Positions 1 to 51,607 of a stretch of DNA of 64,000 bases are shown one piece after another. Under the pieces are notes generated by a model that searched no databases, was not told the DNA's origin, and saw only the letters and a list, made by a program, of their open reading frames with translations. How positions within the stretch are numbered: position 1 is the stretch's first letter; each line of letters starts with the position of its first letter. The position numbers and the translations under genes were made by a program. The stretch is from Actinobacteria bacterium HGW-Actinobacteria-6. Lineage in GTDB: Bacteria; Actinomycetota; Coriobacteriia; Anaerosomatales; Anaerosomataceae. The DNA lies in assembly GCA_002841295.1 (NCBI GenBank), contig PHEU01000007.1:6417-70416 (forward strand). Reading direction: 5' to 3'.

Positions 1-1016
1 CACTCCGGGCCGACGAGGTCGACGACGAACGCGCGCGCCATACCCTCTGTGAGCGCGTACGGCACACCGTACGCCGCAAAGAGCAGCCATGGCGCCCATG
101 TGTGCGAAGCGAGTGCAAACCCCGCATACACGACACCGTACAGTGCGAAGCCGATAGTGAGTACGCGGCGTCGACCGATGCGGTCCGAGAGGTTACCCGC
201 CGGTGCGGCAATCGCGGAGCCGACCAGGTTGAAGATGAAGTACATGAGCGGCACGAGCGCGGTTGCCGCACCGAGGTCTTTCGCGCGCAGGATAAGCATG
301 GCATCCGACGAGTTGCCGAGCGCGAATACCGCTGAGATCGCAGTGAACACGCCAAAAGGCATGCCCAGATGCCTGAAGCCGAGCGGCGGGCGCGTTCCGG
401 TGGCGGGCGCGTGTGGTCGGCGCTCCCGGACGGCCAGAGCAAGCACCACGATCGCCGCAGTACCCGGAATCGCCGAGATGAGGAACACGGTGCGGAACCC
501 GGCCTCGCCGTGCACGAGCGAGAGCGTAGCCCATGCGATGAGCGGTCCGATCGCTGCACCGAGCGTGTCGAGCGCGCGATGGAGTCCGAACGCCTTGCCG
601 CGCACCTCGGGAGCCGCCGAGTCCGCGATGAGTGCGTCTCTCGGCGCTGTACGGATACCTTTGCCGAAGCGGTCGGCGAATCGCAGCGCGAGCACGGCTG
701 GCCAGGAGCCGGCGATCGCCAGAATCGGCTTCATGAGGTTGGAGAGCCCGTAGCCGAGCAAGATGAGCGGACGACGCCGTCCGACACGATCGGAAAGCCA
801 GCCCGAGAAGACCTTCATGAGCGATGCGGTTGCCTCGGCGATGGACTCGATGATGCCGATGACGGCCACCGGTGTGCCGAGCACGCTAGAGAGGAAGAGC
901 GGGAGGATGGGGTAGATCGCCTCGGACGACGCGTCTGTGAGCAGGCTCACGATCCCGAGCGCTTTCACGTTCTTGAGCGAGGTATCGGGCGCTGCGGTCC
1001 CAGCGGGGTCGGGCAT
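1..1016 (-). CDS. MFS transporter, N-terminal part (C-terminus lies beyond the window edge)
   Basis: Absent from the ORF track because it is open at the edge. My translation of the minus strand from ATG (complement of 1014-1016) gives MPDPAGTAAPDTSLKNVKALGIVSLLTDASSEAIYPILPLFL...FSGWLSDRVGRRRPLILLGY...ADRFGKGIRTAPRDA, which contains MFS motif A (G-x-L-S-D-R-x-G-R-R). GAGGAGG lies just upstream (complement of about 1021-1027). Confidence 0.75.
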   Translation of the reverse strand, partial: MPDPAGTAAPDTSLKNVKALGIVSLLTDASSEAIYPILPLFLSSVLGTPVAVIGIIESIAEATASLMKVFSGWLSDRVGRRRPLILLGYGLSNLMKPILAIAGSWPAVLALRFADRFGKGIRTAPRDALIADSAAPEVRGKAFGLHRALDTLGAAIGPLIAWATLSLVHGEAGFRTVFLISAIPGTAAIVVLALAVRERRPHAPATGTRPPLGFRHLGMPFGVFTAISAVFALGNSSDAMLILRAKDLGAATALVPLMYFIFNLVGSAIAAPAGNLSDRIGRRRVLTIGFALYGVVYAGFALASHTWAPWLLFAAYGVPYALTEGMARAFVVDLVGPE

Positions 1017-1030
1017 CGTACCTCCTCGGC

Positions 1031-1074
1031 GTATCACATAATGATACCGCTGCGGCCGCAGCCTCGGGTAGACT
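1031..1074. promoter_or_regulatory. Divergent MFS/ATPase control region: inverted repeat GTATCA-N5-TGATAC (1031-1047), perfect 14-nt palindrome GCTGCGGCCGCAGC (1049-1062), -10-like TAGACT (1069-1074)
   Basis: Read directly from the sequence. TAGACT ends 6 nt before ATG 1081 and no Shine-Dalgarno precedes that ATG, so a leaderless mRNA is possible. The proteins that bind the palindromes are unknown. Confidence 0.3.
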
Positions 1075-1080
1075 ACTCAC

Positions 1081-1353
1081 ATGCCGCCAACCGAGTCAGA
1101 GACATTCCAACTGCTAGCGCTGTTGCCCGCGCCGTACTACTGCGCAGGTTGCGCCGAGCGTGTCTGTGCGCAAGCCAGCGGCATCGGCGGCGTCATCGAG
1201 GCAACGTGCATGGCCGAGGAGGGCTCGCTTGCGGTGACGTTCGACCCGCTCGCGATCTCGTCGGAGCGCCTCGGAGAGCGTGTACGCGAACTCGCGCTTG
1301 AAGTCACCGGTGCCGTAGGGCACGCGGTCTACAGGCTCACGGGTCTTGATTGA
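1081..1353 (+). CDS. N-terminal heavy-metal-associated (HMA) region of the downstream P-type ATPase, ended by an in-frame TGA (1351-1353)
   Basis: 90 aa with a CAGC (CxxC) motif in an HMA-like context. The ORF ends ...HAVYRLTGLD-TGA and is in the same frame as ORF 1372..3435. The text after the TGA continues PDCARAVGASVAAVNGVHSADVNFASGLLTFEYD, which is a second HMA domain. Confidence 0.6.
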   Translation: MPPTESETFQLLALLPAPYYCAGCAERVCAQASGIGGVIEATCMAEEGSLAVTFDPLAISSERLGERVRELALEVTGAVGHAVYRLTGLD

Positions 1354-1371
1354 CCTGACTGCGCACGCGCC

Positions 1372-3435
1372 GTGGGCGCGTCGGTCGCAGCGGTTAACGG
1401 AGTGCACTCCGCGGATGTCAACTTCGCGAGCGGGCTGCTCACCTTTGAATATGACGCGGCGGTGGATCCGAGGACTGCCGTCGTGACGCTCGTACGCGGC
1501 ACCGGTCACGGCGTGGAGCAGCTTGGCGAGCATGCCGAGGACAGCCCGCAGCAGTCGTGGTGGGAGCGCAATCGCGCGACCGCAGCGATATCGGCCAGCG
1601 GACTGCTGATCGTCGTCGGCTGGGTGCTTGGCACATTCGGTACGCCTGCTCCGGCGTCAACGGTGCTCTACGCACTCGCGATCCTTGCGGGTGGTCTCAT
1701 CACCTGGCGCCGGGCATTCGTTTCGATTCGTGCGCGCATGCTCGACATGAACGTGCTCATGACGATTGCCGTCATCGGCGCGGCGGCGATCGGAGAGTGG
1801 CAGGAGGGTGCGACCGTCATCTTCCTGTTCGCCCTCGGCGGATGGCTTGAGTCGCGTTCGCTTGAGCGCACGCGCCGCTCGATTCGCGACCTCCTGGCGT
1901 TTGAACCCGAGCAAGCGCGCGTGCGACGCGCCGAGCGCGAGGAGCTCGTGGCTCCTGCTGACGTACGTGTTGGCGAGACGCTCATCGTGCGGCCGGGAGA
2001 GCGGGTCGCCCTCGACGGCGTCATCGCGAGCGGTGCCTCGGCACTCGATGAGGCACCCATTACAGGCGAGTCGATTCCGGCTGACAAGGGCGCAGGCGAC
2101 CGAGTATTTGCAGGATCACTCAACACCAGCGGTTTGTTGGAAGTCGAGGTCACCGCGCTTTCGACCGACTCAACGCTGACGCGCATCATCTATCTTGTCG
2201 AGGAGGCGCAGGCCGCCAAGGCGCCCTCGCAGCAGTTCGTTGACCGCTTCTCACGTTTGTACACACCGATCGTCGTCTGGCTGGCCGTGGGCGTCGCGAC
2301 CGTGCCACCGGTTGCCGCGTGGGCGCTCGGCGCCGAGTGGGGCGGCTTTGAATCGTGGCTCTACCGCGCGCTTGTGTTGCTCGTCATCAGCTGTCCCTGT
2401 GCACTCGTCATCTCCACGCCGGTGGCGATCGTCTCGGCCATCACCCGGGCATCGCGCGACGGTGTGCTCATCAAAGGTGGCGCTTTCCTTGAGATAGCGG
2501 CCAAAGTACGTGCGATAGCGTTCGACAAGACTGGCACGCTCACGCACGGACACCCCGTTGTAGTCGAGCTTTCCGCCGAGGAGCCACACGCGTTTCTAGC
2601 GCTTGCGGCGTCGCTCGAGGCGAATTCGAATCATCCGCTCGCCAGAGCCGTCGTTGCCGAGGCAGAGCGCGAAGGAGTCTCGTTGCAGCCCGTCAACGAC
2701 TTCGAGGAGCTCCCCGGGCGCGGTGTGGGAGGCGTGGTCGCCGGCCGCAAGCTTCGGCTGGTGAGCCCGTCGTTCGCTGCCGAAATCGGGCAGGTGAGCA
2801 ACACGATCTCTCAGCATATCCTGCTTGCCGAGGAGGCCGGACGCACCGTATTCGTGCTGTTAGATGACGGGGAGGCACTCGGCTATCTTGCGGTGGCAGA
2901 CGAAGTGCGCACGAACGCCAGCGACACCATGCAGCGTCTCCGCTCGGCGGGCATTGAGCACCTTGTGATGCTGACTGGCGACAACGAACGCACGGCCGAG
3001 GCGGTGGCCACGATCGCGGGCCTGACTGAGAGCCGCGCGCGCCTTCTTCCGGGCGACAAGACCTCGGCGGTAGCGGAGCTACAGGAGCGCTACGGCGTGG
3101 TCGCGATGATAGGCGACGGCGTGAACGATGCTCCCGCCCTTGCGACGGCCGACCTCGGCATTGCGATGGGAGCAGCCGGAAGCGACACCGCGGTTGAGAC
3201 GGCGGATGTGGCGCTCATGCGCGACGATCTCTCGGCGTTGCCGGGCTTCTTCGACCTGGGGCGACGCACTGTTGCGAATATCCGACAGAACGTGGCGCTT
3301 TCGATCGTGGTCAAGCTCGTTGTGCTGGTGTTGGCGGTCTTTGGCAAGGCGACGCTGTGGATGGCGGTCTTCGCCGATACCGGCGTTGCACTCATCGTCA
3401 TCGCGAACGGGCTGCGGCTTCTCAAGAAGCGCTAG
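1372..3435 (+). CDS. Heavy-metal-translocating P1B-type ATPase (Zn2+/Cd2+/Pb2+ subtype). This is the minimal ORF from GTG 1372; the real product may start at 1081 (see findings).
   Basis: Motifs seen: CPC in SCPCALVISTP, DKTGTLT phosphorylation site, SNHPLA (HP motif), GDGVNDAPAL hinge. N-x7-K (NVALSIVVK) and D-x-G (ADTGVAL) in the last two TM helices match the P1B-2 signature. Confidence 0.92.
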   Translation: MGASVAAVNGVHSADVNFASGLLTFEYDAAVDPRTAVVTLVRGTGHGVEQLGEHAEDSPQQSWWERNRATAAISASGLLIVVGWVLGTFGTPAPASTVLYALAILAGGLITWRRAFVSIRARMLDMNVLMTIAVIGAAAIGEWQEGATVIFLFALGGWLESRSLERTRRSIRDLLAFEPEQARVRRAEREELVAPADVRVGETLIVRPGERVALDGVIASGASALDEAPITGESIPADKGAGDRVFAGSLNTSGLLEVEVTALSTDSTLTRIIYLVEEAQAAKAPSQQFVDRFSRLYTPIVVWLAVGVATVPPVAAWALGAEWGGFESWLYRALVLLVISCPCALVISTPVAIVSAITRASRDGVLIKGGAFLEIAAKVRAIAFDKTGTLTHGHPVVVELSAEEPHAFLALAASLEANSNHPLARAVVAEAEREGVSLQPVNDFEELPGRGVGGVVAGRKLRLVSPSFAAEIGQVSNTISQHILLAEEAGRTVFVLLDDGEALGYLAVADEVRTNASDTMQRLRSAGIEHLVMLTGDNERTAEAVATIAGLTESRARLLPGDKTSAVAELQERYGVVAMIGDGVNDAPALATADLGIAMGAAGSDTAVETADVALMRDDLSALPGFFDLGRRTVANIRQNVALSIVVKLVVLVLAVFGKATLWMAVFADTGVALIVIANGLRLLKKR

Positions 3436-7600: not shown

Positions 7601-9589
7601 ATGACCGACGAGCAGAAGGACCATCGCATCGAAGCGCTAAGCGGCGAGGGTCGGGTTGTCGAGCCGCCAACGGATTTTGCCGAGAAGGCATTCATCTCCG
7701 GACGTGAGGCGTACGAAGCCGACTACCAGCGCTCCCTGGAGGACCCGGATGGCTACTGGGGAGACATAGCTCGCGAGAAGCTCGAATGGATGACACCTTT
7801 TGAGCAGGTTAGTGGCGGTGGGTTCGATACGCTCGACAGCACGTGGTTCGCCGGTGGCAAACTCAACGTCAGTGCCAACTGCCTCGACCGTCATCTAGAC
7901 ACATGGCGGCGCAACAAGGCCGCGCTCATATGGGAAGGCGACGATGGGTCGTCGAGGACGTTCACCTACCAGCAGTTGCACTACGAGGTCTCCAAATTCG
8001 CTAACGTTCTCAAGAAGAAGGGCATCGAGCGCGGCGATCGCGTGGCGATCTACCTGCCGATGATTCCCGAGCTCCCCATCGCGATGCTCGCGTGCGCACG
8101 CATCGGCGCGATCCACTCGGTGGTATTCGGTGGTTTCTCGGCAAGCGCACTACGTGAACGTATCCAGGACTGCGGAGCGAAACTCCTGATCACCTCCGAT
8201 GAGGGCATTCGCGGCGGTCGCAAGGTGCCGCTGAAGGCAGCTGCCGACGAGGCGCTCTTCGAATGCCCAAGCATCGAGGCGTGCGTGGTGGTCAAGCGCG
8301 GCGCGGGTGACGTGGACATGGAGCCGGGACGCGACACCTGGTGGCATCAGGAGATCAGCGCTCCCGAGGTCCGGAAGCCGTGCGCGGCCGAGCCCATGGA
8401 CGCCGAGGATCCGCTCTTCATCCTCTACACATCAGGTTCGACCGGGAAGCCGAAAGGCGTTCTCCACACGACAGCCGGTTACTTGCTGTATACGGCGCTG
8501 ACGTTCAAGACAGTCATGGATTACCGGGACGAGGACGTGTACTGGTGCACCGCCGATATCGGCTGGGTGACCGGTCATAGCTACATCGTCTACGGCCCGC
8601 TTGCCGAGGGTGCGACATCGCTCATGTTCGAAGGCGTGCCGACGTATCCCGATCCGGGACGGTTCTGGGCGGTCGTCGAGAAGTATCGCGTCAACATCTT
8701 CTACACCGCGCCAACAGCGATCCGCGCCTTGATGCGCCATGGCGACGGCTGGCCCAAGCGCTACGACCTTTCGTCGCTCAGGTTGTTGGGAACGGTCGGT
8801 GAGCCGATCAACCCCGAGGTCTGGGGCTGGTATCAGGACACGATTGGCAGGGGCGAGGTTCCCATCGTCGACACGTACTGGCAGACCGAGACCGGGGGCT
8901 TCCTTATTACGCCGTTCCCCGGGGCCACACCGCTCAAGCCCGGCTCGGCAAGCTGGCCGTTCTTTGGCATCGAACCCGAAGTCGTCCGCGAGGATGGCAG
9001 CCGTGCAGACCCGGGCGAGGGCGGCTATCTCACTGTGAAGCGTCCGTGGCCGGGCATGTTGCGCGGCACCTGGGGAGATCCGGAGCGCAAGCGGATGCAT
9101 GAGGTGTACTTCGAGCGGTTCCCCGGTCGCTACTTCACCGGCGACGGTGCGCGCGTTGATGCAGACGGTGATTACTGGTTGCTCGGTCGTGTTGACGATG
9201 TCATCAACGTGAGCGGACATCGCCTCGGCACGGCCGAGATAGAGAGCGCTCTCGTGAGTCATGACGCAGTGAGTGAGGCGGCTGTCGTCGGTTTCCCGCA
9301 TCCGGTGAAAGGCGAGGGCATTCACGCGTATGTGGTTCTGCGTGACGGGCAGGTCGCGAGCGACGACCTCGCCAAGATCCTTGCCGGGCACGTGCGCAAG
9401 CTGATTGGTCCTATTGCCAAGCCGGACAAGATCCAGTTTGCGCGGGACATTCCGAAGACCCGATCGGGCAAGATCATGCGCCGGATCCTGAGGAAGATCG
9501 CTGCGGGCGAGCGGGAGATGGAGGCGTTCGGGGATATCTCGACCCTTCAGGATCCGAAGGTCGTGAAAGACTTGCTCGCAGGTTTGTAG
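7601..9589 (+). CDS. acs: Acetyl-CoA synthetase (AMP-forming)
   Basis: 662 aa with [14 protein letters not shown]-binding motif, [34 protein letters not shown] and SGKIMRR C-terminal lysine motif. Confidence 0.95.
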
Positions 9590-9612
9590 TAGCAGCGAAG
9601 GCTCGTTCGTTT

Positions 9613-9650
9613 CCGGTCGGCTATGGGGTGAGCACCTCGTAGCCGACCGG
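9613..9650 (+). terminator. Hairpin after acs: 11-bp stem CCGGTCGGCTA / TAGCCGACCGG
   Basis: Perfect 11-bp inverted repeat 24 nt after the acs stop. The downstream U-tract is weak (TCTGCTATGT). Confidence 0.4.
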
Positions 9651-9755
9651 TCTGCTATGTGAGGACTCTCTCATCGTCCTCTCATGGTTCGTTCACGCTG
9701 CCAGTCGATACTCCTTTCGGCGAACCTCACGCAAAGACGACCGAAAGGATCCGCC

Positions 9756-10952
9756 ATGAAGCTCTCCAGATCAAGGCTGCTACTCGCTGTCGCGTCCGCA
9801 GTGGTTATCGTTTTTGCGACTGCAGGAGTGGCTCTTGCCGCGCCTGTCATCAAGGTCGGTCAGGGTGTTCCGAATGCGGTGCACTCGAGTTATCCCGGCT
9901 TGTGCACCAACTGCCACAACTTCGCTGTATGGCCGGCGCCCACGATTGCGCAGGGCGCTACCGCGACCCACCTCTCCCGTGGGACGACCTGCACGCAGTG
10001 TCACACCGTCAGCACGCCGCCTCCGGTGGTCGTCCGTGTTCCTGTGACGTACGTGAAGGGCGCATCTCGCTACGAGACAGCAGTCAAGGTCTCACAGACC
10101 TCATATCCGAGCGGAGCATCCGCTGTCGTTCTCGCCACGGGCACGAACTTCCCCGACGCTCTGTGCGCCGCCCCGCTCGCCACGGCGTTCGGTGGACCGA
10201 TTCTTCTCGTCCCGTCCGCAAACTCGCTCGATGCGAAGATTCTGGCCGAGATGAACCGACTCCACCCGACGACCGTGTTCGTGATCGGATCGAGCGCCGC
10301 GGTCTCGTCGGGCATCGAGAAGCAGATCAAAGCGCTTTCGTGGGCACCGACGGTGACCCGCCTGGCCGGCGCCGACCGGTTTTCTACCTCGGCAATCGTC
10401 GCCGATGCTGTGAAAGCGAAGCTCGGTACTATCGACAAGGTTGTCATCGCTAGTGGCATGACGTATCCCGACGCGCTCTCAGTCGCCCCGCTCGCGGCCC
10501 AGAAGGGCTGGCCTATCCTGTTGACCAAACCCACGTCGCTTCCGTCGCAGACCGTCTCGGCGGTGAGCCGGATGGGAGCGAGCTCGAGTCTCATCGTCGG
10601 CAGTGCCGCCTCGGTGAGCACCGGAGTGGCGGCGCAGCTTCCATTGCCGCTGCGCAAAGGTGGCGCGAATCGCTATGAAACATGTGCGCTCGTGGCTGAC
10701 TACGCGAAGTCGCTCGGCATGAAGTACGAGTACATCGGCACGACGGTCGGCACCAACTTCCCGGATGCGCTTGCCGCAGGCCCGCTGTTCGCTCAGAAGA
10801 ACGGCATCCTGCTGCTAACGGCGCCTGGATCGGTCGCTTCGCAGGTATCCTCACGCTTGAGCACCAACAAGGCGACGGTTACGTCGTTCGTAGTGATCGG
10901 CGGCGCCGTCCAGCAGACCACCATCAACACGATGAGTACGCTGCTCAACTAG
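9756..10952 (+). CDS. Secreted protein with two N-terminal CxxCH motifs followed by three cell-wall-binding repeat 2 (CWB2) modules
   Basis: Start chosen at ATG 9756 (MKLSRSRLLLAVASAVVIVFATAGVALA-AP signal peptide, AAAGGA upstream); the ORF track starts at 9684. CTNCH is at 9903-9917 and CTQCH at 9990-10004. The CWB2 signature repeats three times: RYET..., TG.NFPDAL.A.PLA...G.PILL. Confidence 0.8.
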   Translation: MKLSRSRLLLAVASAVVIVFATAGVALAAPVIKVGQGVPNAVHSSYPGLCTNCHNFAVWPAPTIAQGATATHLSRGTTCTQCHTVSTPPPVVVRVPVTYVKGASRYETAVKVSQTSYPSGASAVVLATGTNFPDALCAAPLATAFGGPILLVPSANSLDAKILAEMNRLHPTTVFVIGSSAAVSSGIEKQIKALSWAPTVTRLAGADRFSTSAIVADAVKAKLGTIDKVVIASGMTYPDALSVAPLAAQKGWPILLTKPTSLPSQTVSAVSRMGASSSLIVGSAASVSTGVAAQLPLPLRKGGANRYETCALVADYAKSLGMKYEYIGTTVGTNFPDALAAGPLFAQKNGILLLTAPGSVASQVSSRLSTNKATVTSFVVIGGAVQQTTINTMSTLLN

Positions 10953-10975
10953 GTAGCAACCACTGCATCGTTGAA

Positions 10976-11006
10976 GAAGGCGATCGGGGAACACCCGGTC
11001 GCCTTC
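10976..11006. terminator. Bidirectional terminator hairpin between convergent genes
   Basis: GAAGGCGATCGGG-GAACA-CCCGGTCGCCTTC (13 bp with one G-U pair), followed by TTTCGTTG on the plus strand. Confidence 0.5.
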
Positions 11007-11017
11007 TTTCGTTGTCG

Positions 11018-13285
11018 TCAGAGGCGAGCGAGACGCTCTCGGATCCGCATGGATAGATGTCCGAGTTCGCCCGGGTCGCGAGGCGCTACGCCTTCCGTGT
11101 CGACGATATGGAATGTGTCGCTCGCACGTCCGCTGCGGGTGAGGGCGTTTACGCGCGTGATTTCAAATCCTGCATGAGCGATCTCATCGGCGATATCAAA
11201 GAGCAGGCCCACCCGGTCTGGGGAGTTGACGGTGAGCGCGGTAGCGAAGCTCGACTCAGTGCGCGTTTCGATCTGGGTACGTCCCTTTGCGCGAGCCGGG
11301 TATTGCTGGCGTCGCTCGGCGAGGCGACCGCGAATGTCGAGATGACCGTCCATTGCTGCCGCGAGGCGGCGCTCCAGGGCGTTCCACGTCTCAGGGCCTA
11401 TCTCGGCGAGTGTGGCCGAGACGACCGAGAACGTATCGAGCACCGTTCCTGCGGGGCCGGCGAACGCGGTGGCCCCCAGGATATCCAGGCCTGACAGCGC
11501 TATCACGCCTGCCAGGGTCGCGAAGACGCCGGAGCGATCATAGGCTGCTATGGCAACGCGGTGCGCTCCCGTTGTGTCTGTGGCCGAGACGCGAACGGAG
11601 GTTTGCTCACGCGACCCCCGCGGGCCCAGGCGCGAGAGCAGCCGCGCGTCGGCTGCGGCTTCGGTTGCGCTTCGTGCGGCGAAGAACCGGACCGGCACAT
11701 GTCGAAGAACGGCAGCGGTGGCTTCGTCATAGGAGGTGCTGAGTGCTTGTGAGCGGATACCCTCGGCGCGTTCCACCATGCCTGCACCATCGATGTCATC
11801 GGCGAGTGCGGTGTCCAGACGCGAGACAAGCGTGCGAACAAGCGAGGCATGCCACGCGTCCCAGGTCGTGGGTCCGGTCGCCAGGCTGTCGGCGGCGGTC
11901 AGCACATACAGTGGCGCGACCAGGTCCCGGTCGCCGATACGCGCGGCGGTGCGCAGAATCACGTCCTCGTCATCGATATCGGCGCCGGATGCGGTCTCGG
12001 CCAGCAGGAGGTGCTCTCTCACCAGTGAAGCAGCCTTCTCGGCGATGTAGGACGAGCCACCTAAGGCCAGGGCGGTCTGCGTTGCTGCCACCTGGCCTCG
12101 CTCGGCATGGCCGGGCCCCGGAACGGTCTTACCTGAATCGTGGGTGAGGCATGCAGTGATGAGCGCAAGGCGCAGGTCCGGCGAGGTCACCGACGCGGCG
12201 ATCGGGTCCGTCGCGGGTAGCTCGGTGGCGAGCCCCGCTGTCATCAGCGAGTGCGCGCCTACGGTGAATCGATGATCGAGCGCCGGGCGTCGCAATACCA
12301 TGAGTTCTGCCAGGCCCGGAGCAAGTGTTTCCAACGCGCTCCGTCGGGCGGCGCACTGGAGGCGGGGGAGCATGGACGTGCCGTGGGCGAGCGTGCCGAG
12401 CAGTTCTTCCGGCGCCCACTGCCGGGGATGGAGGTCAGTCGCCGGCAATTCCCCCCGGATTGCCGAGAGCAGCTCGTGGATGTTCGCAAGCGCCGAATGT
12501 AGCTCCTCGACAGCCATTGGCGCGGCCTCGGCCGTCTCAAAATCGAGGACCGCTTGCTTGCGGCCAGCACTGTGGTGGAGTAGCCAGCGCGCTGCCGAGA
12601 TGCGATCCTGCGCCGCGGCGATATCGCTAAGCTCGGAATCGCCGAGCAGCCCCGACGCGCCGCTGCCGGGACGCGCCACCGGCGAGGCGAGTGCGACAGC
12701 CGTCCGCCACGTGAGTTCGTCGATGTCGCGTTGGCCTCCGGCGCCTTCTTTGAGGTCGGGCTCAAGCTCGTATGGCGAGCCTGGTCGGGGTCTGGCCGAG
12801 AAGGCTCGCAGTAACGCGCTGCGCTTCTTGCCGGCGTACTTCGCGACTGCAGCGAGCGTCTCGGCGGCAAGCGCATCATCGCCGGCGAGATATCGCCCGG
12901 TGAGCGTGGCTGTGAGCGTCTCGACGTCTTCAGCGCATGCGCGCATATGGTCTTTGCGCGTGCGTACAGCGTGCCCGACCTCGAAGTTCGCATCCCACAA
13001 CGGGTACATGAGCGCCTGGACGCAGTCGCGTGCCGAGCGGGGATCGGTACCGACGATTACGAGCAGGTCGAGGTCCGAGAAGGGTAGCAGGCGCCGTGAG
13101 CCATACGCGCCGAGTGCAAGCAGGCTCCAGGGCTCGCGGAACGAGGCGAAGGCCGCCTCCGCAAGAGCGGAGACGGCCTCATCTGTCAGGTCAGAGAGCA
13201 TGCGCGTTGCGGCTGTTCCGGGCGTGACGCTCTCGATCAGCGCAGCACGCCGGATGATGAACTCCGCAAGCGGCTCGGTTGTCAT
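11018..13285 (-). CDS. glnD: [Protein-PII] uridylyl/adenylyl-transferase GlnD
   Basis: 755 aa with a nucleotidyltransferase motif (GAYGSRRLLPFSDLDLLV), an HD domain (LTHDSGK) and two C-terminal ACT-like domains. It lies immediately downstream of glnK and amt. Confidence 0.85.
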   Translation of the reverse strand: MTTEPLAEFIIRRAALIESVTPGTAATRMLSDLTDEAVSALAEAAFASFREPWSLLALGAYGSRRLLPFSDLDLLVIVGTDPRSARDCVQALMYPLWDANFEVGHAVRTRKDHMRACAEDVETLTATLTGRYLAGDDALAAETLAAVAKYAGKKRSALLRAFSARPRPGSPYELEPDLKEGAGGQRDIDELTWRTAVALASPVARPGSGASGLLGDSELSDIAAAQDRISAARWLLHHSAGRKQAVLDFETAEAAPMAVEELHSALANIHELLSAIRGELPATDLHPRQWAPEELLGTLAHGTSMLPRLQCAARRSALETLAPGLAELMVLRRPALDHRFTVGAHSLMTAGLATELPATDPIAASVTSPDLRLALITACLTHDSGKTVPGPGHAERGQVAATQTALALGGSSYIAEKAASLVREHLLLAETASGADIDDEDVILRTAARIGDRDLVAPLYVLTAADSLATGPTTWDAWHASLVRTLVSRLDTALADDIDGAGMVERAEGIRSQALSTSYDEATAAVLRHVPVRFFAARSATEAAADARLLSRLGPRGSREQTSVRVSATDTTGAHRVAIAAYDRSGVFATLAGVIALSGLDILGATAFAGPAGTVLDTFSVVSATLAEIGPETWNALERRLAAAMDGHLDIRGRLAERRQQYPARAKGRTQIETRTESSFATALTVNSPDRVGLLFDIADEIAHAGFEITRVNALTRSGRASDTFHIVDTEGVAPRDPGELGHLSMRIRERLARL

Positions 13286-43340: not shown

Positions 43341-43646
43341 CTACTGCACGCAGCTCGAGTACTTGAGAAAGACCTTGATGGCTTCGTCGATGAGTTCGTC
43401 ACGAGACTTCTCGCCGTCTTCGACAAGACACGTCTTCATCGAGAAGCCTATGATGTGAAGACCGACCTGATTGAGCGCCGACTTTGCAGCCATGATCTGA
43501 GTCAGAACGGCCTCGCAATCCTTGCCGGACTCGATCATCGTCTGTAGGCCACGGATCTGCCCTTCAAGCCGCTTGAGCCTGTTGATGATCTTGCGTCGCT
43601 CTTCGTCGTTGCCGATTGAGTCGCTTGTGAGTTCAATGCCGTCCAT
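43341..43646 (-). CDS. CsoR/RcnR/FrmR-family (DUF156) metal- or thiol-responsive transcriptional repressor
   Basis: 101 aa. RLKRLEGQIRGLQTMIESGKDCEAVLTQIMAAKSALNQVGLHIIGFSMKTC is the family's alpha1-alpha2 core, with Cys at the X and Z ligand positions. Confidence 0.85.
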   Translation of the reverse strand: MDGIELTSDSIGNDEERRKIINRLKRLEGQIRGLQTMIESGKDCEAVLTQIMAAKSALNQVGLHIIGFSMKTCLVEDGEKSRDELIDEAIKVFLKYSSCVQ

Positions 43647-43702
43647 GGTGACTCCCTTGCGTCAGGAGCGGTTTGCCATACAATGATTAGGTTTGGCTCA
43701 CT

Positions 43703-43719
43703 ATACCCCCTGGGGGTAT
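43703..43719. promoter_or_regulatory. CsoR/RcnR-type operator ATACCCCC-T-GGGGGTAT shared by divergent promoters
   Basis: Minus strand, toward the repressor gene: TTGTCG (43729-43724)-N18-TATAGT (43705-43700). Plus strand, toward the CDF gene: TTGGCT (43693-43698)-N18-TATGCG (43717-43722). Confidence 0.7.
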
Positions 43720-43745
43720 GCGTCGACAAGCCGAGGGGGCATCGG

Positions 43746-44687
43746 ATGGGTTACAGCAAAACCAAGAGCGGCACCGACAACTCGCGGGCGGCTATGATCA
43801 AGCGGGTTCTCTGGATCATCCTCGGCTTGAACGTACTTGTTGCTGTTGCCAAGCTCGGATACGGCCTTATCACACGATCGGTTGGAATGACGGCCGACGG
43901 GTTCCACTCTATGTTCGACGGTACCTCGAACGTGATCGGGCTTCTCGCGATGGGCATTGCCGCGCGTCCCGCCGATAGCGATCACCCGTACGGACACTCG
44001 AAGTATGAAACGTTCGCGTCGGTTATCATCGGCGCGATGTTGATGCTGGCCGCCTGGCGCGTGGGAACCTCGGCTTTCGAGCGGCTCATGAACCCTGGCG
44101 AGCCAGCGCGGGTTGATGCCGTCTCGTTCGCCGTCATGATCGGCACGCTCTGTATCAACGTCTTTGTCACAAAGTACGAGCGTAAAGTAGGGGAGCGCCT
44201 GGGTAGCGAGATCCTTGTCGCGGACGCGAGCCACACCGGTAGTGACATTCTTGTGAGCATTGGCGTTATCGTCGGACTCATCGCGGTGAAGCTCGGATTT
44301 CCGATTGCGGATCCAATCGTCGGTCTTGTGGTCGCCGGATTCATAGTCTTCGCTGCGCTGCGTGTCTTCAAGTCCGCGAATGAGACGCTCTCCGACAGGG
44401 CCAGAATCGCACCCGAAGAGATCAGGGTCGTGGCTCTTGGGGTACCCGGTGTCCTGGGCTGCCATGAGGTTCGGACGAGAGGCCCTCTTGCCGAGGTGTA
44501 CGTGGACCTGCACATTCAAGTTGATCCGACGGTGAGTGTTGCCGAGGGCCATGCGATCGCCGAACGAGTTGAGAAGTCGATCTGTGAGAACCTGAGTCAG
44601 GTCACAGACGTTATTGCGCATCTTGAACCGCTCGATGAGTATCAGAGGCGAAAGACCGAACTACAAGTCGCCGAAGAATCGGAATAA
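43746..44687 (+). CDS. Cation diffusion facilitator (CDF) family divalent metal efflux transporter
   Basis: Start at ATG 43746 after GAGGGGG. TM2 HSMFDGTSN and TM5 HTGSDILVS form an H-D/H-D site. There is a C-terminal cytoplasmic domain (VRTRGPLAEVYVDLHIQVD). Confidence 0.9.
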   Translation: MGYSKTKSGTDNSRAAMIKRVLWIILGLNVLVAVAKLGYGLITRSVGMTADGFHSMFDGTSNVIGLLAMGIAARPADSDHPYGHSKYETFASVIIGAMLMLAAWRVGTSAFERLMNPGEPARVDAVSFAVMIGTLCINVFVTKYERKVGERLGSEILVADASHTGSDILVSIGVIVGLIAVKLGFPIADPIVGLVVAGFIVFAALRVFKSANETLSDRARIAPEEIRVVALGVPGVLGCHEVRTRGPLAEVYVDLHIQVDPTVSVAEGHAIAERVEKSICENLSQVTDVIAHLEPLDEYQRRKTELQVAEESE

Positions 44688-45773: not shown

Positions 45774-47168
45774 ATGGAACTCTCCCACAGGCCGGAACTA
45801 CGGCACAAAGTCACCTTGTCGCCCCAGGTCTATCAGGGGCTCACTATTCTTGCAATGCCGGTCGCTGAGCTTCAGATGCTGATCGAGACCGAGCTGCTGG
45901 AGAACCCCGTCCTTGAGTTGGAAGAGGACGAGCACGAGCCCGCGGAGGAACTCGATGACCGCGTCGACGATTCCGAAGAAGAGCGCGCCTGGGATGACTG
46001 GCTTGACCAGTACGATGACCTCGAGCAGCTGGATTCAGGTTCTCCGCGCGATCCGAACCAAGAGGAGATCAACTCCGAAGACTTTGTCGGCGGAGTACAG
46101 TCCTTCGATGACTATCTGCTCGATCAGCTGGGCATGATCGAAGCTCCGGAGGACGTTGCCCGCGCCGCACGCGCGATCATCGGCTCACTGGACAATGACG
46201 GCCTGTTCGTCGGAGATAGTGCTGAGATAGCTGCAATCACCGGTGTCAGCGTTGCCGTGGCCGACAAGGCGCTCTCGGTCGTCCAGCAGCTTGACCCTCC
46301 CGGAGTCGGTGCCAGGAACGTTCGCGAAGCTCTGAGGATTCAGGCTGCGTACCTCGGGATAGACACCCCGCTCCTCCTTGCACTCATCGAGCGTCATCTC
46401 GACGCCGTGGCTGTGAGTCACACGCGCAAGATCGCGCGTGCGGAGCATGTCAGCGAGGACGAAGTGCGCGACACCGTTGAGAAGCTCAAGCAACTCAATC
46501 CTCGACCAGCCGGGGCATTCTCCCCCGGGCACGCGCCCGGCTATGTGGTCCCGGATGTCACGCTACGCCGTTTTGGGGACGAGTGGCTCATTATCCCGAA
46601 CAATGAGGCTGTTCCTACGCTGAAGGTCTCTCCTCGGTACAGGCAGATGCTTCGAAGCCAGTCGAGCGCGGATGACGAAACACGCAAGTACCTCAAGGAC
46701 AAGATTCGCTCGGCAGAATCGTTCCTGCGCAACGTTGATCGTCGCAGGGACACCGTGAGCCGCATCGCGGAGATCATCTTGGAGACCCAGCATGACTTCT
46801 TCGAGGACGGACGCGGGGACATGCGTCCGCTGCGCCTGGAAGATGTCGCTGTTGAGATCGGCGTGCATCTCAGTACGATAAGTCGGGGCGTCACCGGGAA
46901 GTACATGGCGACTCCGTACGGACTCTTTGAGTTGAAGCACTTCTTCTCGGGCGGCTACCGAACCTCGAGCGGTATGGACGTGGCTGCAACCACCGTGAAG
47001 CGGCGGATCAAGGAGTTCCTTGAGGCAGAGGATCCCGCGCACCCGCTGTCCGATCAGAAGCTTGCCGAGGCGCTCTCAGGCGAGGGCGTCGATGTGGCGC
47101 GCCGGACGGTCGCGAAGTATCGCGAGGAGATCGGCATCGACCCGTCGTGGGCGAGGAAGCGCCGATGA
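45774..47168 (+). CDS. rpoN: RNA polymerase sigma-54 factor
   Basis: 464 aa with a Gln/Leu-rich region I (LSPQVYQGLTILAMPVAELQMLIETELLENPVLE), an acidic region II, a core-binding region, an HTH and the RpoN box (ARRTVAKYRE). Confidence 0.95.
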   Translation: MELSHRPELRHKVTLSPQVYQGLTILAMPVAELQMLIETELLENPVLELEEDEHEPAEELDDRVDDSEEERAWDDWLDQYDDLEQLDSGSPRDPNQEEINSEDFVGGVQSFDDYLLDQLGMIEAPEDVARAARAIIGSLDNDGLFVGDSAEIAAITGVSVAVADKALSVVQQLDPPGVGARNVREALRIQAAYLGIDTPLLLALIERHLDAVAVSHTRKIARAEHVSEDEVRDTVEKLKQLNPRPAGAFSPGHAPGYVVPDVTLRRFGDEWLIIPNNEAVPTLKVSPRYRQMLRSQSSADDETRKYLKDKIRSAESFLRNVDRRRDTVSRIAEIILETQHDFFEDGRGDMRPLRLEDVAVEIGVHLSTISRGVTGKYMATPYGLFELKHFFSGGYRTSSGMDVAATTVKRRIKEFLEAEDPAHPLSDQKLAEALSGEGVDVARRTVAKYREEIGIDPSWARKRR

Positions 47169-48703
47169 AGCCAGAGAAGCAGCAAACCGAGCGCATGGGC
47201 GACAAGCTTGACCAAACACTCGTCACAGGCCAGAGAAGCGACGGGCGGGATGTTGCGCTCATCGTGATCTTGCTCGGCGTTATCACCGTTCTGCATCTGT
47301 TCACGACCACATCGGCTCAGGCCATGCCGATGCATCTGCTGTACCGCAAGCTGTACTACCTACCGATCATGTACGCAGGTTTCGTGTTTGGCCGACGCGG
47401 CGGTTTCATCACGGCGATCGCAGCGAGCTTGCTGTTTGGATTGCACGCTACGGTCTCATTGGGCGGCCTTCTCGGTGTGCATATCGACAACCTCTACGAG
47501 ATCGTGATGTACCTCGCTGTCGGTGTGATGTTCGGCTGGTTGCGTGATCTTGCCGAGGCCAAGACGAGCGACCTGCGTCAGTTGAGCAAACAGCTTGAGG
47601 AAGCGTACCGAAAACTAGAAGAGCGCGCGATACAACTCGTCAACATCCAGGACTACACCCAGTCGATCCTGCGCTCTATCACGTCGGGCGTCATGACTGT
47701 TGGTCCTGACGGCTCAGTCGCGACCGCCAACCCGGCCGCCGAGCGCATGTTGGGCGTGCGGGAGGTCGACATCGTCCCTCGGCGTATCGGTACGCTCTTC
47801 GCCGATGACTCAGGGCTCGACGCCGAGGTAACGAAGGTTCTCAACGGTCGCATCCCGAAGTCTGTCCGCGACATGCGACTGGTCACGCGGGCGGGCAGAG
47901 TGCTCCACGTGCAGGTCTCCACTTCGCGCATGCGCGATGTCGATGGCCGCATACTCGGCGCCGTCGTCACCATTGAGGATGTGTCCGAGGTCAAGGCGCT
48001 GACAGACCAACTTATCCGTGCTGATCGACTCGCAGCCATGGGCGAATTGACGGCGGGCGTGGCGCATGAGGTTCGAAACCCGCTCGGCATCATCAGGGCT
48101 TCGGTCCAGCTGGTTGAGGAATCTGGATGCGACCGCAGTAGGGTGCTGGAGGCGACGAGCGTCATCAAGCAAGAGATCGACCGCCTCGACCGCGTCATCA
48201 AGGCCCTGCTCGACTTCGGAAGGCCGTCGAAGCCATACCTACGACTAACGGACATGGGAGAAGTCATCGAGGACGTCATTTTGTTCACGCGCCGGTTTGC
48301 CGGACAATCGAAGGTGACGATCTCAGCCACCGACACCGGATCTCTGCCACAGATCATGGCTGACCCCGATCAAATGAAGCAGGTCTTTGTGAACCTCGTT
48401 TCGAACGCCGTGCAAGCGATGGAAGGCACGGGAGGCAAGATTTCTCTCAGTGGGCGGGTTGTTGACGGGTTCCTTTCGATCTCAATCTCGGACGACGGTC
48501 CCGGAATTCCCGCCGCAGACGTCAAGAAGGTATTTGATCCGTTCTACTCGACGCGTGATGCGGGTACGGGTCTCGGGTTGACGATCGTGCATCGTATTTT
48601 GGATGAGCACGACGGACACATCGAAGTCATAAGCGACCTTGGGCAGGGCACAACGTTCATCGTTTCCCTGCCTGTGTTCCAGATCAATGAGGAGGACCGA
48701 TGA
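47165..48703 (+). CDS. Sensor histidine kinase (membrane domain, PAS, HisKA, HATPase_c; NtrB/AtoS-like)
   Basis: ATG 47165 overlaps the rpoN stop (ATGA). There are four N-terminal TM helices, a PAS domain (SILRSITSGVMTVGPDG) and the H-box GELTAGVAHEVRNPL. N, G1 and G2 boxes are present (NLVSNAVQAM, DDGPGI, GTGLGL). Confidence 0.9.
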   Translation: MKPEKQQTERMGDKLDQTLVTGQRSDGRDVALIVILLGVITVLHLFTTTSAQAMPMHLLYRKLYYLPIMYAGFVFGRRGGFITAIAASLLFGLHATVSLGGLLGVHIDNLYEIVMYLAVGVMFGWLRDLAEAKTSDLRQLSKQLEEAYRKLEERAIQLVNIQDYTQSILRSITSGVMTVGPDGSVATANPAAERMLGVREVDIVPRRIGTLFADDSGLDAEVTKVLNGRIPKSVRDMRLVTRAGRVLHVQVSTSRMRDVDGRILGAVVTIEDVSEVKALTDQLIRADRLAAMGELTAGVAHEVRNPLGIIRASVQLVEESGCDRSRVLEATSVIKQEIDRLDRVIKALLDFGRPSKPYLRLTDMGEVIEDVILFTRRFAGQSKVTISATDTGSLPQIMADPDQMKQVFVNLVSNAVQAMEGTGGKISLSGRVVDGFLSISISDDGPGIPAADVKKVFDPFYSTRDAGTGLGLTIVHRILDEHDGHIEVISDLGQGTTFIVSLPVFQINEEDR

Positions 48704-50049
48704 AACGGCGCGTACTGATTGCCGATGATGAGAAGAACATGCGCTGGGTGCTTGCCCAGGCATTGAGCGCTGAAGGGTACGAGGTGCAGGAGGCGGCCGA
48801 CGGTAAGGCAGTTCTGGCCGCCGTCAATGAGCAGCCGCCGGATCTTATGGTTCTCGACCACAAGATGCCCGCGCCGGACGGCATGGAGGTTCTGCGTCGG
48901 CTGCGGGCCAAAGGACACTCGTTCCCGATCATCATGCTCACAGCGCACGGCAATGTGACGAGCGCTGTTGAGGCGATGAAGGCGGGCGCAAGCGAGTATC
49001 TGACGAAGCCATTCGATCTTGAAGAGTTGAAGATCAGCATTGAGAAGGCCCTGAAGGTCAGCGAGCTCTCGGCCGAGGTCACACGGCTTCGCGAGGAGCT
49101 CGACCGGGACTACGACGTCTCGGGAATCGTTGCGGCCGATCCGTCGATGCTCGGCATCCTTGAGACCATTCGCAAAGTTGCTCCGACGAGTGCCACCGTC
49201 ATGGTCTATGGCGAGTCAGGTACGGGCAAAGAGCTCGTAGCCCGGGCTATGCACACAATGTCGGCCCGTTCGACCAAGCCGTTCATCTCTGTGAGCGCAG
49301 GCGCGTTGCCCGAGACGCTTCTGGAGAGTGAGCTGTTCGGGTACGAAAAGGGCGCCTTCACTGGTGCAATGCAGGCAAAACCCGGGCGTTTCGAACTCGC
49401 AAACGGCGGGACGATATTCCTGGATGAAATCGGGGACATCAGCCCGAACGTGCAAGTCAAGCTGCTGCGGGTACTGCAGGAGAGGACTTTTGAGCGCCTT
49501 GGCGGCACACGTCAGATCGAGGTCGATGTTCGCGTCGTGGCGGCTACCAACCGGGATATCCAGCAGCTGATTGCCGACGGGGATTTCAGAGAGGATCTCT
49601 ACTACCGGCTCAACGTCGTCCCTGTCACCTTGCCGCCGCTTCGGCAGAGACCAAGCGAGATTCCGCTTCTGATCGCGCACTTCCTTGAGAAGTACAAGGC
49701 CGGCGACAGGCACTTCTCCGACGAGGCCATGAGGCTATTGGTCGAATATCAATGGCCCGGCAATGTCCGCGAACTTGAGAACACCATCGAGCGGATAGGA
49801 ATCCTTGCCCGCGGCGAAGAAATCGATATTGATGATCTGCCTTCGGAGGTGCGCGCCGGAGTCGCGATGTGCTCACCCGGCGAACGATGTTTCGTTCTGC
49901 CAGAGGTCGGAATCAGCTTGGAAGAAGTGGAACTCGACTTCTTGCGACAGGCGCTTGAACGCACTGGCGGTTCGGCTCCCAAGGCCGCAAAACTCCTCGG
50001 TCTTACAACCAAGACCCTGGAAGCCCGAATGGAGAAGTTCGGCTTGTAG
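48700..50049 (+). CDS. Sigma-54-dependent response regulator (NtrC family: REC, AAA+ with GAFTGA, Fis-type HTH)
   Basis: REC domain (DLMVLDHKMP), Walker A GESGTGKE, GAFTGA loop (EKGAFTGA), and a C-terminal HTH (APKAAKLLGLTTKTLEARMEKFGL). ATGA overlap with the kinase stop. Confidence 0.95.
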   Translation: MKRRVLIADDEKNMRWVLAQALSAEGYEVQEAADGKAVLAAVNEQPPDLMVLDHKMPAPDGMEVLRRLRAKGHSFPIIMLTAHGNVTSAVEAMKAGASEYLTKPFDLEELKISIEKALKVSELSAEVTRLREELDRDYDVSGIVAADPSMLGILETIRKVAPTSATVMVYGESGTGKELVARAMHTMSARSTKPFISVSAGALPETLLESELFGYEKGAFTGAMQAKPGRFELANGGTIFLDEIGDISPNVQVKLLRVLQERTFERLGGTRQIEVDVRVVAATNRDIQQLIADGDFREDLYYRLNVVPVTLPPLRQRPSEIPLLIAHFLEKYKAGDRHFSDEAMRLLVEYQWPGNVRELENTIERIGILARGEEIDIDDLPSEVRAGVAMCSPGERCFVLPEVGISLEEVELDFLRQALERTGGSAPKAAKLLGLTTKTLEARMEKFGL

Positions 50050-50076: not shown

Positions 50077-50092
50077 TGGCACGAGGCTTGCA
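50077..50092 (+). promoter_or_regulatory. Sigma-54 (-24/-12) promoter TGGCAC-GAGGC-TTGCA
   Basis: Perfect match to TGGCAC-N5-TTGCW. It lies 28 nt after the NtrC-family gene stop and 40 nt upstream of ATG 50132. Confidence 0.75.
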
Positions 50093-50131: not shown

Positions 50132-50488
50132 ATGCATCCACAGAGCAAGCGAAGAGTGGTCGTTGTTGCAGCGGGTATCATCGCTGTCGTTTCGCTTGTC
50201 GCCGGACTCATTCTGCTCGTCAATGCCGAGGACGGATTCTCCGGTTGCACGGGTGCGGCTGAGTTTGGTTGGCTGGCGCCTTTGCTGGCAGCGTCGATCA
50301 TCGGCGGCCTCGCCTGGGTACTGTTGGCTCAAGATCCTCCTGCGGCCGATGATGCCGGAAACACGCAGATCGCGGAATGCCCGGAGTGCAAACGAGCGGT
50401 TCTCGGCCAATGGCGAATGTGTCCATACTGCGGAGAGATGCTCGATCCTCGCTACTCCACCCGCGCGGCAGCGTCACAGAACAAGTAG
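50132..50488 (+). CDS. Two-TM membrane protein with a C-terminal zinc ribbon (CPEC-x12-CPYC)
   Basis: 118 aa with two hydrophobic helices, then ECPECKRAVLGQWRMCPYCGEML. RBS AGGGTGAAG. No named family recognised. Confidence 0.6.
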   Translation: MHPQSKRRVVVVAAGIIAVVSLVAGLILLVNAEDGFSGCTGAAEFGWLAPLLAASIIGGLAWVLLAQDPPAADDAGNTQIAECPECKRAVLGQWRMCPYCGEMLDPRYSTRAAASQNK

Positions 50489-50509
50489 TGGAATTCACGA
50501 ACGCCGGAG

Positions 50510-50740
50510 GTGCTTATGTCTGAGTTGGTCACAACGCGCTTCGCTACGACCGGTATGCACTGTCACTCATGCTCGATGCTCATCCAGATGAGCCTCGACG
50601 ACGTTGACGGCATTGAGAGCGCGGTTGCGGACAGTGCGTCTGGTATGACGGAAGTCGTCTACGATGCCGAGCGTGTTACTCCCGAGGTTATCATCTCGGA
50701 AATCGTTAAGGCAGGGTACGGCGCTGAGGTTGCCGAGTAG
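50510..50740 (+). CDS. Heavy-metal-associated (HMA) domain metallochaperone, CopZ-like
   Basis: 76 aa. TTGMHCHSCSMLI is a GMxCxxC motif in a beta-alpha-beta-beta-alpha-beta sized protein. GGAGGTG lies upstream. Confidence 0.85.
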   Translation: MLMSELVTTRFATTGMHCHSCSMLIQMSLDDVDGIESAVADSASGMTEVVYDAERVTPEVIISEIVKAGYGAEVAE

Positions 50741-50860: not shown

Positions 50861-51607
50861 ATGCCTGACGCCACCGTGAGCTACCTTGGAGCCTTTCTTG
50901 GCGGCCTTTTGTCGTTTCTGTCGCCGTGTGTGCTTCCGCTCATTCCCGGATATCTGTCCTTCATGACCGGACTGAGTGCCGGGGACCTGAAGAAGGGGGA
51001 GTCCGGCGTCGCCAGGGTTCTCATTCCGAGCGCGCTGTTCACGCTAGGATTCTCCGTCGTGTTCATCTTGCTAGGCGCCGCAGCTGGCTTCGCGAGCGGT
51101 GCCCTTCGTCCGTTCATGATCCGCTACGAGAATATTCTGGGTGTTGCTGCCGGTGTCGTGGTCGTGCTAGTGGGCGTGTTCTTGCTCGGTGTCATCAAGG
51201 TGCCCTGGCTGTACGGTGAGGCGCGCTTCGAGATGGCTAAGGCTCGGCGCTTTGGCCATGGAGCATCGTTCGTCATGGGCCTGGCTTTCGGCTTCGGGTG
51301 GACACCGTGCGTGGGACCGATATTGGCTGTCATTCTCGGCATGGCCGCCCAGACGGGGGATGCGGTGCGTTCCGCCAGCATGCTCGCCGTGTACTCGCTG
51401 GGCCTGGCAACACCGTTTCTTCTGACAGCGGTCTTCTTCGGCCGCCTGACCACTGCCCTGGGATGGTTCAATCGGCACTCGCTTGCGTTGTCCCGAGCGG
51501 CGGGCGTCGTGTTGATTCTCATGGGCGTGCTCATAGCGACCGGTGAGCTTGGTCGCCTGTCTACTCTCATCATCAAGGCGCTGCCATTCTTGTCTGGCCT
51601 CGGCTAA
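50861..51607 (+). CDS. ccdA: Cytochrome c biogenesis / thiol-disulfide transfer protein CcdA (DsbD-family membrane core)
   Basis: LSFLSPCVLPLIPGYLSF and GWTPCVGPILA are the two conserved Cys-containing motifs of CcdA/DsbD. Six TM helices. Confidence 0.9.
   Translation: MPDATVSYLGAFLGGLLSFLSPCVLPLIPGYLSFMTGLSAGDLKKGESGVARVLIPSALFTLGFSVVFILLGAAAGFASGALRPFMIRYENILGVAAGVVVVLVGVFLLGVIKVPWLYGEARFEMAKARRFGHGASFVMGLAFGFGWTPCVGPILAVILGMAAQTGDAVRSASMLAVYSLGLATPFLLTAVFFGRLTTALGWFNRHSLALSRAAGVVLILMGVLIATGELGRLSTLIIKALPFLSGLG

Follow-up and report, generated by a model that had tools for sequence, protein, structure and literature searches.

The window analyzed here is a 64,000-nt stretch of contig PHEU01000007.1, and all position numbers are those of the window. 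At 1081-3435 it carries a gene for a Zn/Cd-type heavy-metal pump whose reading frame is broken by a single in-frame UGA, and we conclude that this UGA is very probably recoded, serving as a selenocysteine (Sec) codon in a pump of a known selenoprotein family. An initial annotation of this DNA had raised selenocysteine as a candidate; the conserved UGA, the coding character of the frame ahead of it, and a covarying hairpin behind it now strongly support that proposal. That the inserted residue is selenocysteine and that its insertion depends on SelB are predictions that we infer from sequence alone.

Two open reading frames (ORFs), 1081..1353 (90 residues, starting with ATG) and 1372..3435 (687 residues, starting with GTG), lie in one common frame, and our reading of the ORFs confirmed that the sole stop between them is the TGA at 1351-1353. 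Reading through this stop yields ...HAVYRLTGLD-[UGA]-PDCARAVGASVAAVNGVHSADVNFASGLLTFEYD (in another excerpt around the UGA, ...YRLTGLD-[UGA]-PDCARAVGASVAAVNGV...) and a protein of 784 residues including the UGA position. The UGA falls on the first Cys position of the GLDCxxC metal loop in the second HMA domain, as had been proposed, and residues 84-142 match the Pfam HMA model PF00403 with 61.6 bits against a cut-off of 24.8. The description of a two-HMA protein of 784 residues held for the length and for the second HMA domain; residues 1-80 are HMA-like only, at 20.5 bits under the same Pfam cut-off of 24.8. The coding region is laid out as follows.

1081 to 3435, plus strand: predicted selenoprotein P1B-2 ATPase, complete coding sequence (CDS) of 784 residues with U91, from ORF read-through, TIGR01525/TIGR01512 scores and motifs
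1081 to 1320, plus strand: N-terminal HMA-like domain, residues 1-80, with C21-x-x-C24 and C29, from a sub-threshold HMA match and gap-free conservation
1330 to 1506, plus strand: second HMA domain, residues 84-142, with the predicted metal loop G-L-D-U-P-D-C, from Pfam PF00403
1351 to 1353, plus strand: UGA at codon 91, predicted to be read as selenocysteine, in the context GAU-UGA-C; TGA is conserved, with TGY in Cys homologues

The merged sequence was used for a protein search from which the best 120 homologues were taken, and the homologous codon was read in the DNA of 80 relatives from species-representative genomes. Upon alignment at 1351-1353, TGA was found at the identical codon in 25 species-representative genomes spanning two phyla and 42-82% protein identity, while the remaining homologues carry TGT or TGC (Cys) there. 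Twenty-one of the TGA genomes are actinobacterial metagenome-assembled genomes (MAGs) labelled Coriobacteriia or Actinomycetota, and four are Firmicutes, namely Thermincola ferriacetica, Phosphitispora sp. TUW77 and two HGW-Firmicutes MAGs. An intact GLDCPDCARSV is present in the Cys homologues P0057, P0064, P0077 and others. The occurrence of TGA in some homologues and of TGT or TGC at the same codon in others is the signature of a Sec/Cys pair. When metagenome contigs were searched with the pattern G-L-D-TGA-P-D-C-A-R, 55 stretches came up, 53 of them genuine HMA contexts. Long database records with this UGA include OW818687.1 and NZ_CP156677.1, both complete genomes, as well as RCMX01000001.1, CAWFNW010000001.1 and MCHG01000001.1. 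In a rough neighbor-joining tree, the window's actinobacterial clade consists mostly of Sec forms with a few Cys forms nested inside it, and the Firmicutes Sec forms make up a clade separate from the actinobacterial one. Judged from these alignments, the UGA is long conserved and not recent.

The bases around the UGA are constrained as well. The Asp codon before it is GAT in 68/68 actinobacterial Sec forms, as opposed to GAC in 10/11 Cys forms, and the base 3′ of the UGA is C in every Sec form. C after UGA is the weakest context for UGA termination. The invariant GAT points to a context requirement for U at −1, perhaps in combination with C at +4. The next Asp codon of the Sec forms is GAC in 61/68, contrasting with the GAT that stands before the UGA (window 1348-1350).

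The other explanation offered by the initial annotation was a recent nonsense mutation (TGC to TGA) or a sequencing error, leaving either a pseudogene or a pump that is translated from GTG 1372 and lacks the front part of its HMA domain. A fresh mutation would look just like this, with one in-frame stop and an intact frame on both sides, and the 687-residue ORF is what gene callers annotate. However, the same TGA recurs in the 25 species' genomes and the 53 metagenome contigs, and an identical gene pair in an independent ENA assembly argues against a read error; the organism is also represented in JGI 3300029821 and ENA ERZ27239243. Furthermore, the upstream frame is under purifying selection, and GTG 1372 lacks a Shine-Dalgarno sequence and coincides with a conserved Val codon and with the loop of the hairpin described below. 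We therefore assign a mutation or error practically no chance of being correct; the conservation of the codon across species excludes it.

Evidence for a coding upstream frame came from all Sec-form loci. In every one of them the frame 5′ of the TGA is open and always encodes HMA strand β-1 (...YRLTGLD). Ahead of this strand stands, depending on the locus, a ∼70-residue domain with CxxCxxxxC or a short leader. The upstream 84 codons align without gaps across 11 species, as does the retained YYCxxCxxRxC of the N-terminal domain, and dN/dS in this alignment is 0.09-0.25 for close pairs and 0.085-0.23 when only pairs with unsaturated dS are counted. Disruptive N-terminal mutations in relatives, which the initial annotation had named as a mark of a pseudogene, were looked for in these sequences, and none was found in any of them. 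These alignments indicate that the upstream ORF is under purifying selection.

The hairpin that the initial annotation proposed as a selenocysteine insertion sequence (SECIS) lies at the coordinates it gave. A second hairpin, named there as a follower of the first, was re-read at 1398-1411 instead of 1388-1401 (10 nt off); it is not conserved in relatives and we dropped it as part of the element, considering it incidental.

1365 to 1381, plus strand: candidate SECIS hairpin ACGCGCC-GUG-GGCGCGU, type A, from fold, spacing and covariation
1398 to 1411, plus strand: second hairpin CGGAG-UGCA-CUCCG, not part of the element; coordinates re-read, absent in relatives

The first hairpin has a 7-bp stem and a GUG loop with G at the first loop position, and folds at −11.2 kcal/mol. 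The stem sets in 11 nt and the loop 18 nt past the UGA, the spacing among Sec forms being 17-18 nt, and the hairpin agrees with the published bacterial SECIS (bSECIS) model. A folding energy of −7.5 kcal/mol is reached in 14/26 Sec forms versus 1/36 Cys forms, so the Cys forms lack the hairpin. Seven further Sec forms of type B come close, at −6.9 or −7.0 kcal/mol; scored as a simple stem, type B relatives (−6.9 kcal/mol) just miss this threshold. The comparison set of 70 unique actinobacterial sequences falls into three architectures, all with the 5′ arm at +15..+20 and the loop start at +21. Type A, CGC[G/A]CC-GUG-NG[C/U]GCG, to which the window belongs, comprises 18 sequences; type B, GCGGAC-CGUGNNNNN-GUCCGU, comprises 50; and type C, a GGUC tetraloop form, comprises two.

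Within type A, the pair 19-27 is G-C in nine sequences and A-U in nine with zero mismatches (Fisher p = 4e-5, phylogeny not corrected for). Position 19 is the first base of an Ala/Thr codon and position 27 the wobble base of a Gly/Ser/Cys codon two codons on. Overall, 97.2% of the type A cells are paired, the covariation score was reached by 0/500 shuffles, and controls with a slid pairing partner collapsed. The synonymous sites are frozen: third-position entropy is 0-0.9 bits at codons −1, +2 to +7, +9 and +10, as opposed to 1.1-1.9 bits at flanking fourfold sites, and within the element two codons stand out, Pro +1 with 1.38 bits and loop codon +8, which is variable, with 1.56 bits. Thr/Ala xCC is found in 68/68, Val GTG in 67/68 and a third-position G at codon +9 in 68/68 Sec forms. 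Conserved, covarying and in line with the bSECIS model, the hairpin at 1365-1381 behaves as a SECIS.

The apical loop of this hairpin doubles as the apparent start of the downstream ORF.

1372 to 1374, plus strand: apical-loop GUG (Val98), mis-called as the start of the 687-residue ORF; GTG in 67/68 Sec forms, no Shine-Dalgarno sequence

Among the 120 best database homologues, 60 (59-100% identity) have an annotated N-terminus that lies 7-18 residues past the UGA position, all of them truncated at one place by gene callers, giving proteins of ∼676-714 residues that begin, for instance, with MGASV..., MAKSV... or MLAADV.... The codon equivalent to GTG 1372 is the start of 45 of these 60, so that for most of the shortened homologues the annotated start is the GUG/AUG of the SECIS loop. 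Among relatives the first start codon 3′ of the UGA shifts between query residues 98, 102, 105, 108 and 109, and no Shine-Dalgarno sequence precedes GTG 1372 in the window. The earlier suggestion that the ATPase is made from GTG 1372 was accordingly not borne out: the codon is a conserved Val in the SECIS loop. The upstream 90-residue ORFs are left in databases as separate hypothetical proteins.

These start-type codons 7-18 codons past the UGA are also what would be expected if the UGA were a genuine, conserved stop in a split gene encoding a 90-residue soluble metal-binding protein and a separately initiated HMA-less pump. N-terminal metal-binding domains of P1B ATPases are dispensable for transport, which speaks for this reading. 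Such a stop would nevertheless interrupt a βαββαβ fold midway and coincide exactly with a metal ligand, and the first downstream start varies in position and lacks a Shine-Dalgarno sequence. A split gene also leaves unexplained the covarying hairpin, the frozen synonymous sites, the invariant GAU-UGA-C and the presence of Cys at exactly that position in homologues. We consider a split gene very improbable, and a recoded UGA remains the preferred reading.

Several results weigh against Sec recoding. The single-sequence fold of 60 nt of the window is not exceptional for GC-rich DNA (z = −1.27); support for the hairpin comes from the comparison with relatives and not from folding energy. No Rfam family matches the hairpin, including at a permissive threshold on 1300-1480, as expected since bacterial SECIS elements are family-specific. 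The covariation consists of one strongly covarying pair plus invariant pairs, with phylogeny not corrected for. Regarding the machinery, ARAGORN, Rfam and Pfam/NCBIfam scans (the latter of 38/44 long ORFs) found no selA, selB, selD or tRNA-Sec in the 64-kb window, and tblastn with E. coli SelA, SelB and SelD together with ARAGORN found none beside Sec-form loci in ∼1.7 Mb of related loci. The sole hit in this ∼1.7 Mb was a selD beside a Cys-form ATPase (L055), and ∼4.6 kb beyond the window's right end, reached via a UbiD protein look-up, also contained no sel genes. An 85-nt "tRNA-Ala(cgc)" called by ARAGORN in locus L016 (10586-10670, anticodon at position 30) is probably a false positive and was ruled out by an absent Rfam tRNA match and coding-like sequence.

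The absence of Sec machinery from the DNA covered, that is, the window and related loci, would also be compatible with recoding to a residue other than Sec, either Cys delivered by a SelB-dependent, tRNA-Sec-like tRNA(Cys) or near-cognate Trp or Cys, with a CxxC or WxxC product. SelB-dependent recoding to Cys is described in some bacteria, and the sequence does not by itself identify the inserted residue. On the other hand, the hairpin conforms to the standard bSECIS model, selenoprotein catalogues already list the family, and an ordinary Sec trait occurs in related taxa: it is documented in the cultured Coriobacteriia Eggerthella, Cryptobacterium and Collinsella, and Thermincola potens is listed with 10 selenoproteins (both PMC5029168 supplement). 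Cys could moreover be had without any cost from a plain TGY codon, which is what some nested relatives carry. Recoding to another residue is thus very unlikely in our judgment, and selenocysteine remains the expected residue.

A genome-wide reassignment of UGA was ruled out. UGA ends 14/44 long ORFs in the window (TAG 25, TGA 14 and TAA 5, on crude ORF calls), and several of the TGA-ended ORFs match family models through the last profile positions. The preference for TAG is unusual at 61% GC, where TGA normally dominates. A search of the window and of the flanks of Sec-form loci for further ORF pairs that share a frame across a TGA and have a Cys close by returned wrong-frame, high-GC noise only.

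On the Sec reading, translation would begin at ATG 1081, probably on a leaderless mRNA, and the ribosome would pass the N-terminal CxxC HMA-like domain before meeting the UGA at 1351-1353. There, the in-frame SECIS hairpin at 1365-1381, with its apical GUG 18 nt past the UGA, would recruit SelB carrying Sec-tRNA(Sec), and selenocysteine would be inserted in place of termination. In the second HMA domain a selenolate/thiolate site, G-L-D-U-P-D-C, would then replace the usual Cys pair, so that the regulatory N-terminal metal-binding domain presumably binds Cd, Zn, Pb or Hg with a softer and more reactive ligand; the remainder of the protein is a standard pump. Sec is thus predicted to act as a metal ligand in a transporter and not as a redox catalyst.

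A further, rather doubtful idea is that in the actinobacterial clade Sec is the majority and probably the ancestral state of this HMA domain, and that the UGA may additionally act as a selenium-dependent switch. If so, cells with selenium would make the full-length pump, its selenolate site adapted to the soft metals Cd, Hg and Pb, and cells lacking selenium would release a 90-residue CxxC metal-binding fragment and possibly re-initiate an unregulated, HMA-less pump, coupling metal resistance to selenium status.

The read-through product was assigned by family models and motifs. It scores 600.6 bits against TIGR01525 (heavy-metal translocating P-type ATPase; cut-off 346.25) and 522.8 bits against TIGR01512 (cadmium family; cut-off 313.5). 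The E. coli ZntA equivalog cut-offs of the NF033775/NF008262 models were not reached (524 versus 1240 and 598 versus 1005 bits). With scores this far under those cut-offs, the pump is a relative within the family and not a ZntA orthologue. The motif checks gave the following positions.

2392 to 2421, plus strand: transmembrane segment 6 (TM6) metal site CPCALVISTP (CPCx4SxP), residue 438
2524 to 2538, plus strand: DKTGT phosphorylation motif
3289 to 3315, plus strand: TM7 signature Nx7K (NVALSIVVK), residue 737
3376 to 3408, plus strand: TM8 signature DxGx7N (DTGVALIVIAN), residue 766

TGE, HP and GDGVNDAP are present as well. The patterns CPCx4[S/T]xP (TM6), Nx7K (TM7) and DxGx7N (TM8) are the P1B-2 subgroup signatures of the Arguello classification. 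All three are found in the window's protein, with CPCx4SxP as the TM6 form, which bears out the earlier assignment to the Zn/Cd-type P1B ATPases. The product is accordingly predicted to be a Zn(II)/Cd(II)/Pb(II)-type P1B-2 exporter in which an HMA-like CxxC domain precedes the HMA domain that carries U91-x-x-C94; its metal specificity is likewise deduced from these signatures.

Start signals differ between the window's sub-clade and other Sec-form loci. No Shine-Dalgarno sequence precedes ATG 1081, and TAnACT stands exactly 6 nt 5′ of the ATG in the window and in loci L002-L005. By analogy with known actinobacterial promoter architecture, this −10-like hexamer suggests a leaderless mRNA from ATG 1081.

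1069 to 1074, plus strand: −10-like hexamer TAGACT, 6 nt 5′ of ATG 1081; TAnACT-N6-ATG conserved in the window and L002-L005
1031 to 1047, no strand assigned: inverted repeat GTATCA-N5-TGATAC, between a divergent MFS transporter gene and the ATPase, 5′ of the promoter

Repeats related to this inverted repeat (GTATCGCACGATGATAC and similar) occupy the same place in L002-L004. By its position the repeat is a possible operator shared with the divergent MFS gene, and it may serve a metal regulator, since the window's sub-clade lacks the upstream ArsR/CadC gene of other Sec-form loci. In those other loci the start is marked by a GGAGG-type Shine-Dalgarno sequence; frequently the gene in front is ArsR/CadC-like and its stop overlaps the pump's ATG. 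In many of them an ArsR/SmtB-family repressor with ELCVCD ends in a TGA overlapping this ATG (ATGA), as in L012, where the two genes occupy 9564-9947 and 9944-12313 (ATG 9944), and also in L014, L016, L017, L023 and L025. From this overlap, the ArsR-pump pair is predicted to be a cadC-cadA-like, translationally coupled operon.

Elsewhere, the window has a second module for metal efflux at 43341-44687, in which a metal-sensitive repressor of the CsoR/RcnR type (43341-43646, minus strand) and a CDF cation-efflux transporter (43683-44687) are divergently oriented. Further along come genes for a sigma-54 factor (45774-47168), a PAS histidine kinase (47147-48703) and a response regulator that is sigma-54-dependent (48700-50049), and after them, at 50077-50092, a canonical −24/−12 promoter, TGGCAC-N5-TTGCA. 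This promoter is followed by a small ORF (50132-50488) that is membrane/zinc-ribbon-like, then by a CopZ-like HMA protein (50516-50740) whose site is GMHCHSC, and then by a protein of the DsbD/CcdA type (50861-51607). Sigma-54 is usually described as absent from Actinobacteria, and a complete sigma-54 regulon in the window's lineage may be worth a look. The apparent split HMA gene at 50132-50740 was considered as another selenoprotein and rejected: its 118-residue ORF and 74-residue HMA ORF share a frame, but the codon between them is TAG, and the HMA ORF is preceded by a GGAGG of its own and encodes GMHCHSC, a normal site.

As a consequence of the mis-called starts, one in two of the 120 closest homologues stands in the databases as a pump truncated at its N-terminus, and for most of these the "start codon" is the SECIS loop itself. 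Re-annotation would give dozens of MAG proteins back their two-domain metal sensor and add a selenoprotein to the selenoproteomes of Coriobacteriia-like lineages. The ∼70 sequences also provide a clean natural example of a bacterial SECIS embedded in a CDS, including a nonsynonymous Ala/Thr change compensated by a synonymous wobble change.

Compared with known systems, the gene most closely resembles the Sec-containing heavy-metal ATPases, which a passage of a 2026 review (PMC13188914) credits to Zhang and Gladyshev 2007 (PMC1976440). The survey of Peng et al. 2016 (PMC5029168) counted 32 such proteins in 25 organisms, and the family has one occurrence in GOS data. Like these proteins, the window's copy scores above the TIGR01525 cut-off, has an in-frame UGA giving UxxC, has Cys homologues, and carries its SECIS within the CDS immediately 3′ of the UGA. 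For ABB15669.1, we infer by analogy that the U lies in the HMA loop, as CxxC is confined to the N-terminal domains of such pumps. Unlike earlier Sec-ATPases, the copy described here comes from an uncultured Coriobacteriia-related lineage (Actinomycetota). Its SECIS is a short stem from +15 to +31 with a GUG loop, whereas the Firmicutes Sec forms (n = 4) have a longer, different hairpin in which a lower stem at +16..24 pairs with +40..48; this difference suggests a separate origin of the SECIS or a deep divergence. The Firmicutes pumps (L063, L068, L069 and L072, with TGA at 10031, 10031, 10016 and 9836) have the motif U-L/P-D-C, and their lower stem shows compensatory changes, for example GAAAGCUU/AAGCUUUC versus GGGAAG/CUUCCC.

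The protein also shares the architecture of the CadA/ZntA P1B-2 ATPases (NF008262, NF033775, TIGR01512), with CPCx4SxP, Nx7K, DxGx7N, DKTGT and GDGxNDxP, and many relatives share with CadA systems the cadC-cadA-like arrangement with an ArsR-family repressor. In contrast to Cys-only CadA/ZntA pumps, the first ligand of its GxDCxxC loop would be Sec. A Sec in a metal-binding loop is likewise found in small HMA-fold selenoproteins (NF041115, MerP and putative mercuric transport forms), and residues 82-127 match NF041115, the "UxxU metal-binding (seleno)protein", weakly at 31.9 bits against a cut-off of 95. With a score under the cut-off, the window's protein is not a member of NF041115; unlike those stand-alone small proteins, its Sec-HMA domain is fused to a pump, and only the first ligand of its UxxC is predicted to be Sec.

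Taken together, the gene carries every sequence-level mark of the Sec-ATPase family, so we place it there as a predicted new member of a kind that is not itself new. The abundance of the family in uncultured Coriobacteriia-like Actinomycetota, its lineage-specific SECIS there and the systematic mis-annotation of the gene may each be previously unreported and would be incremental additions to what is known of these selenoprotein pumps.

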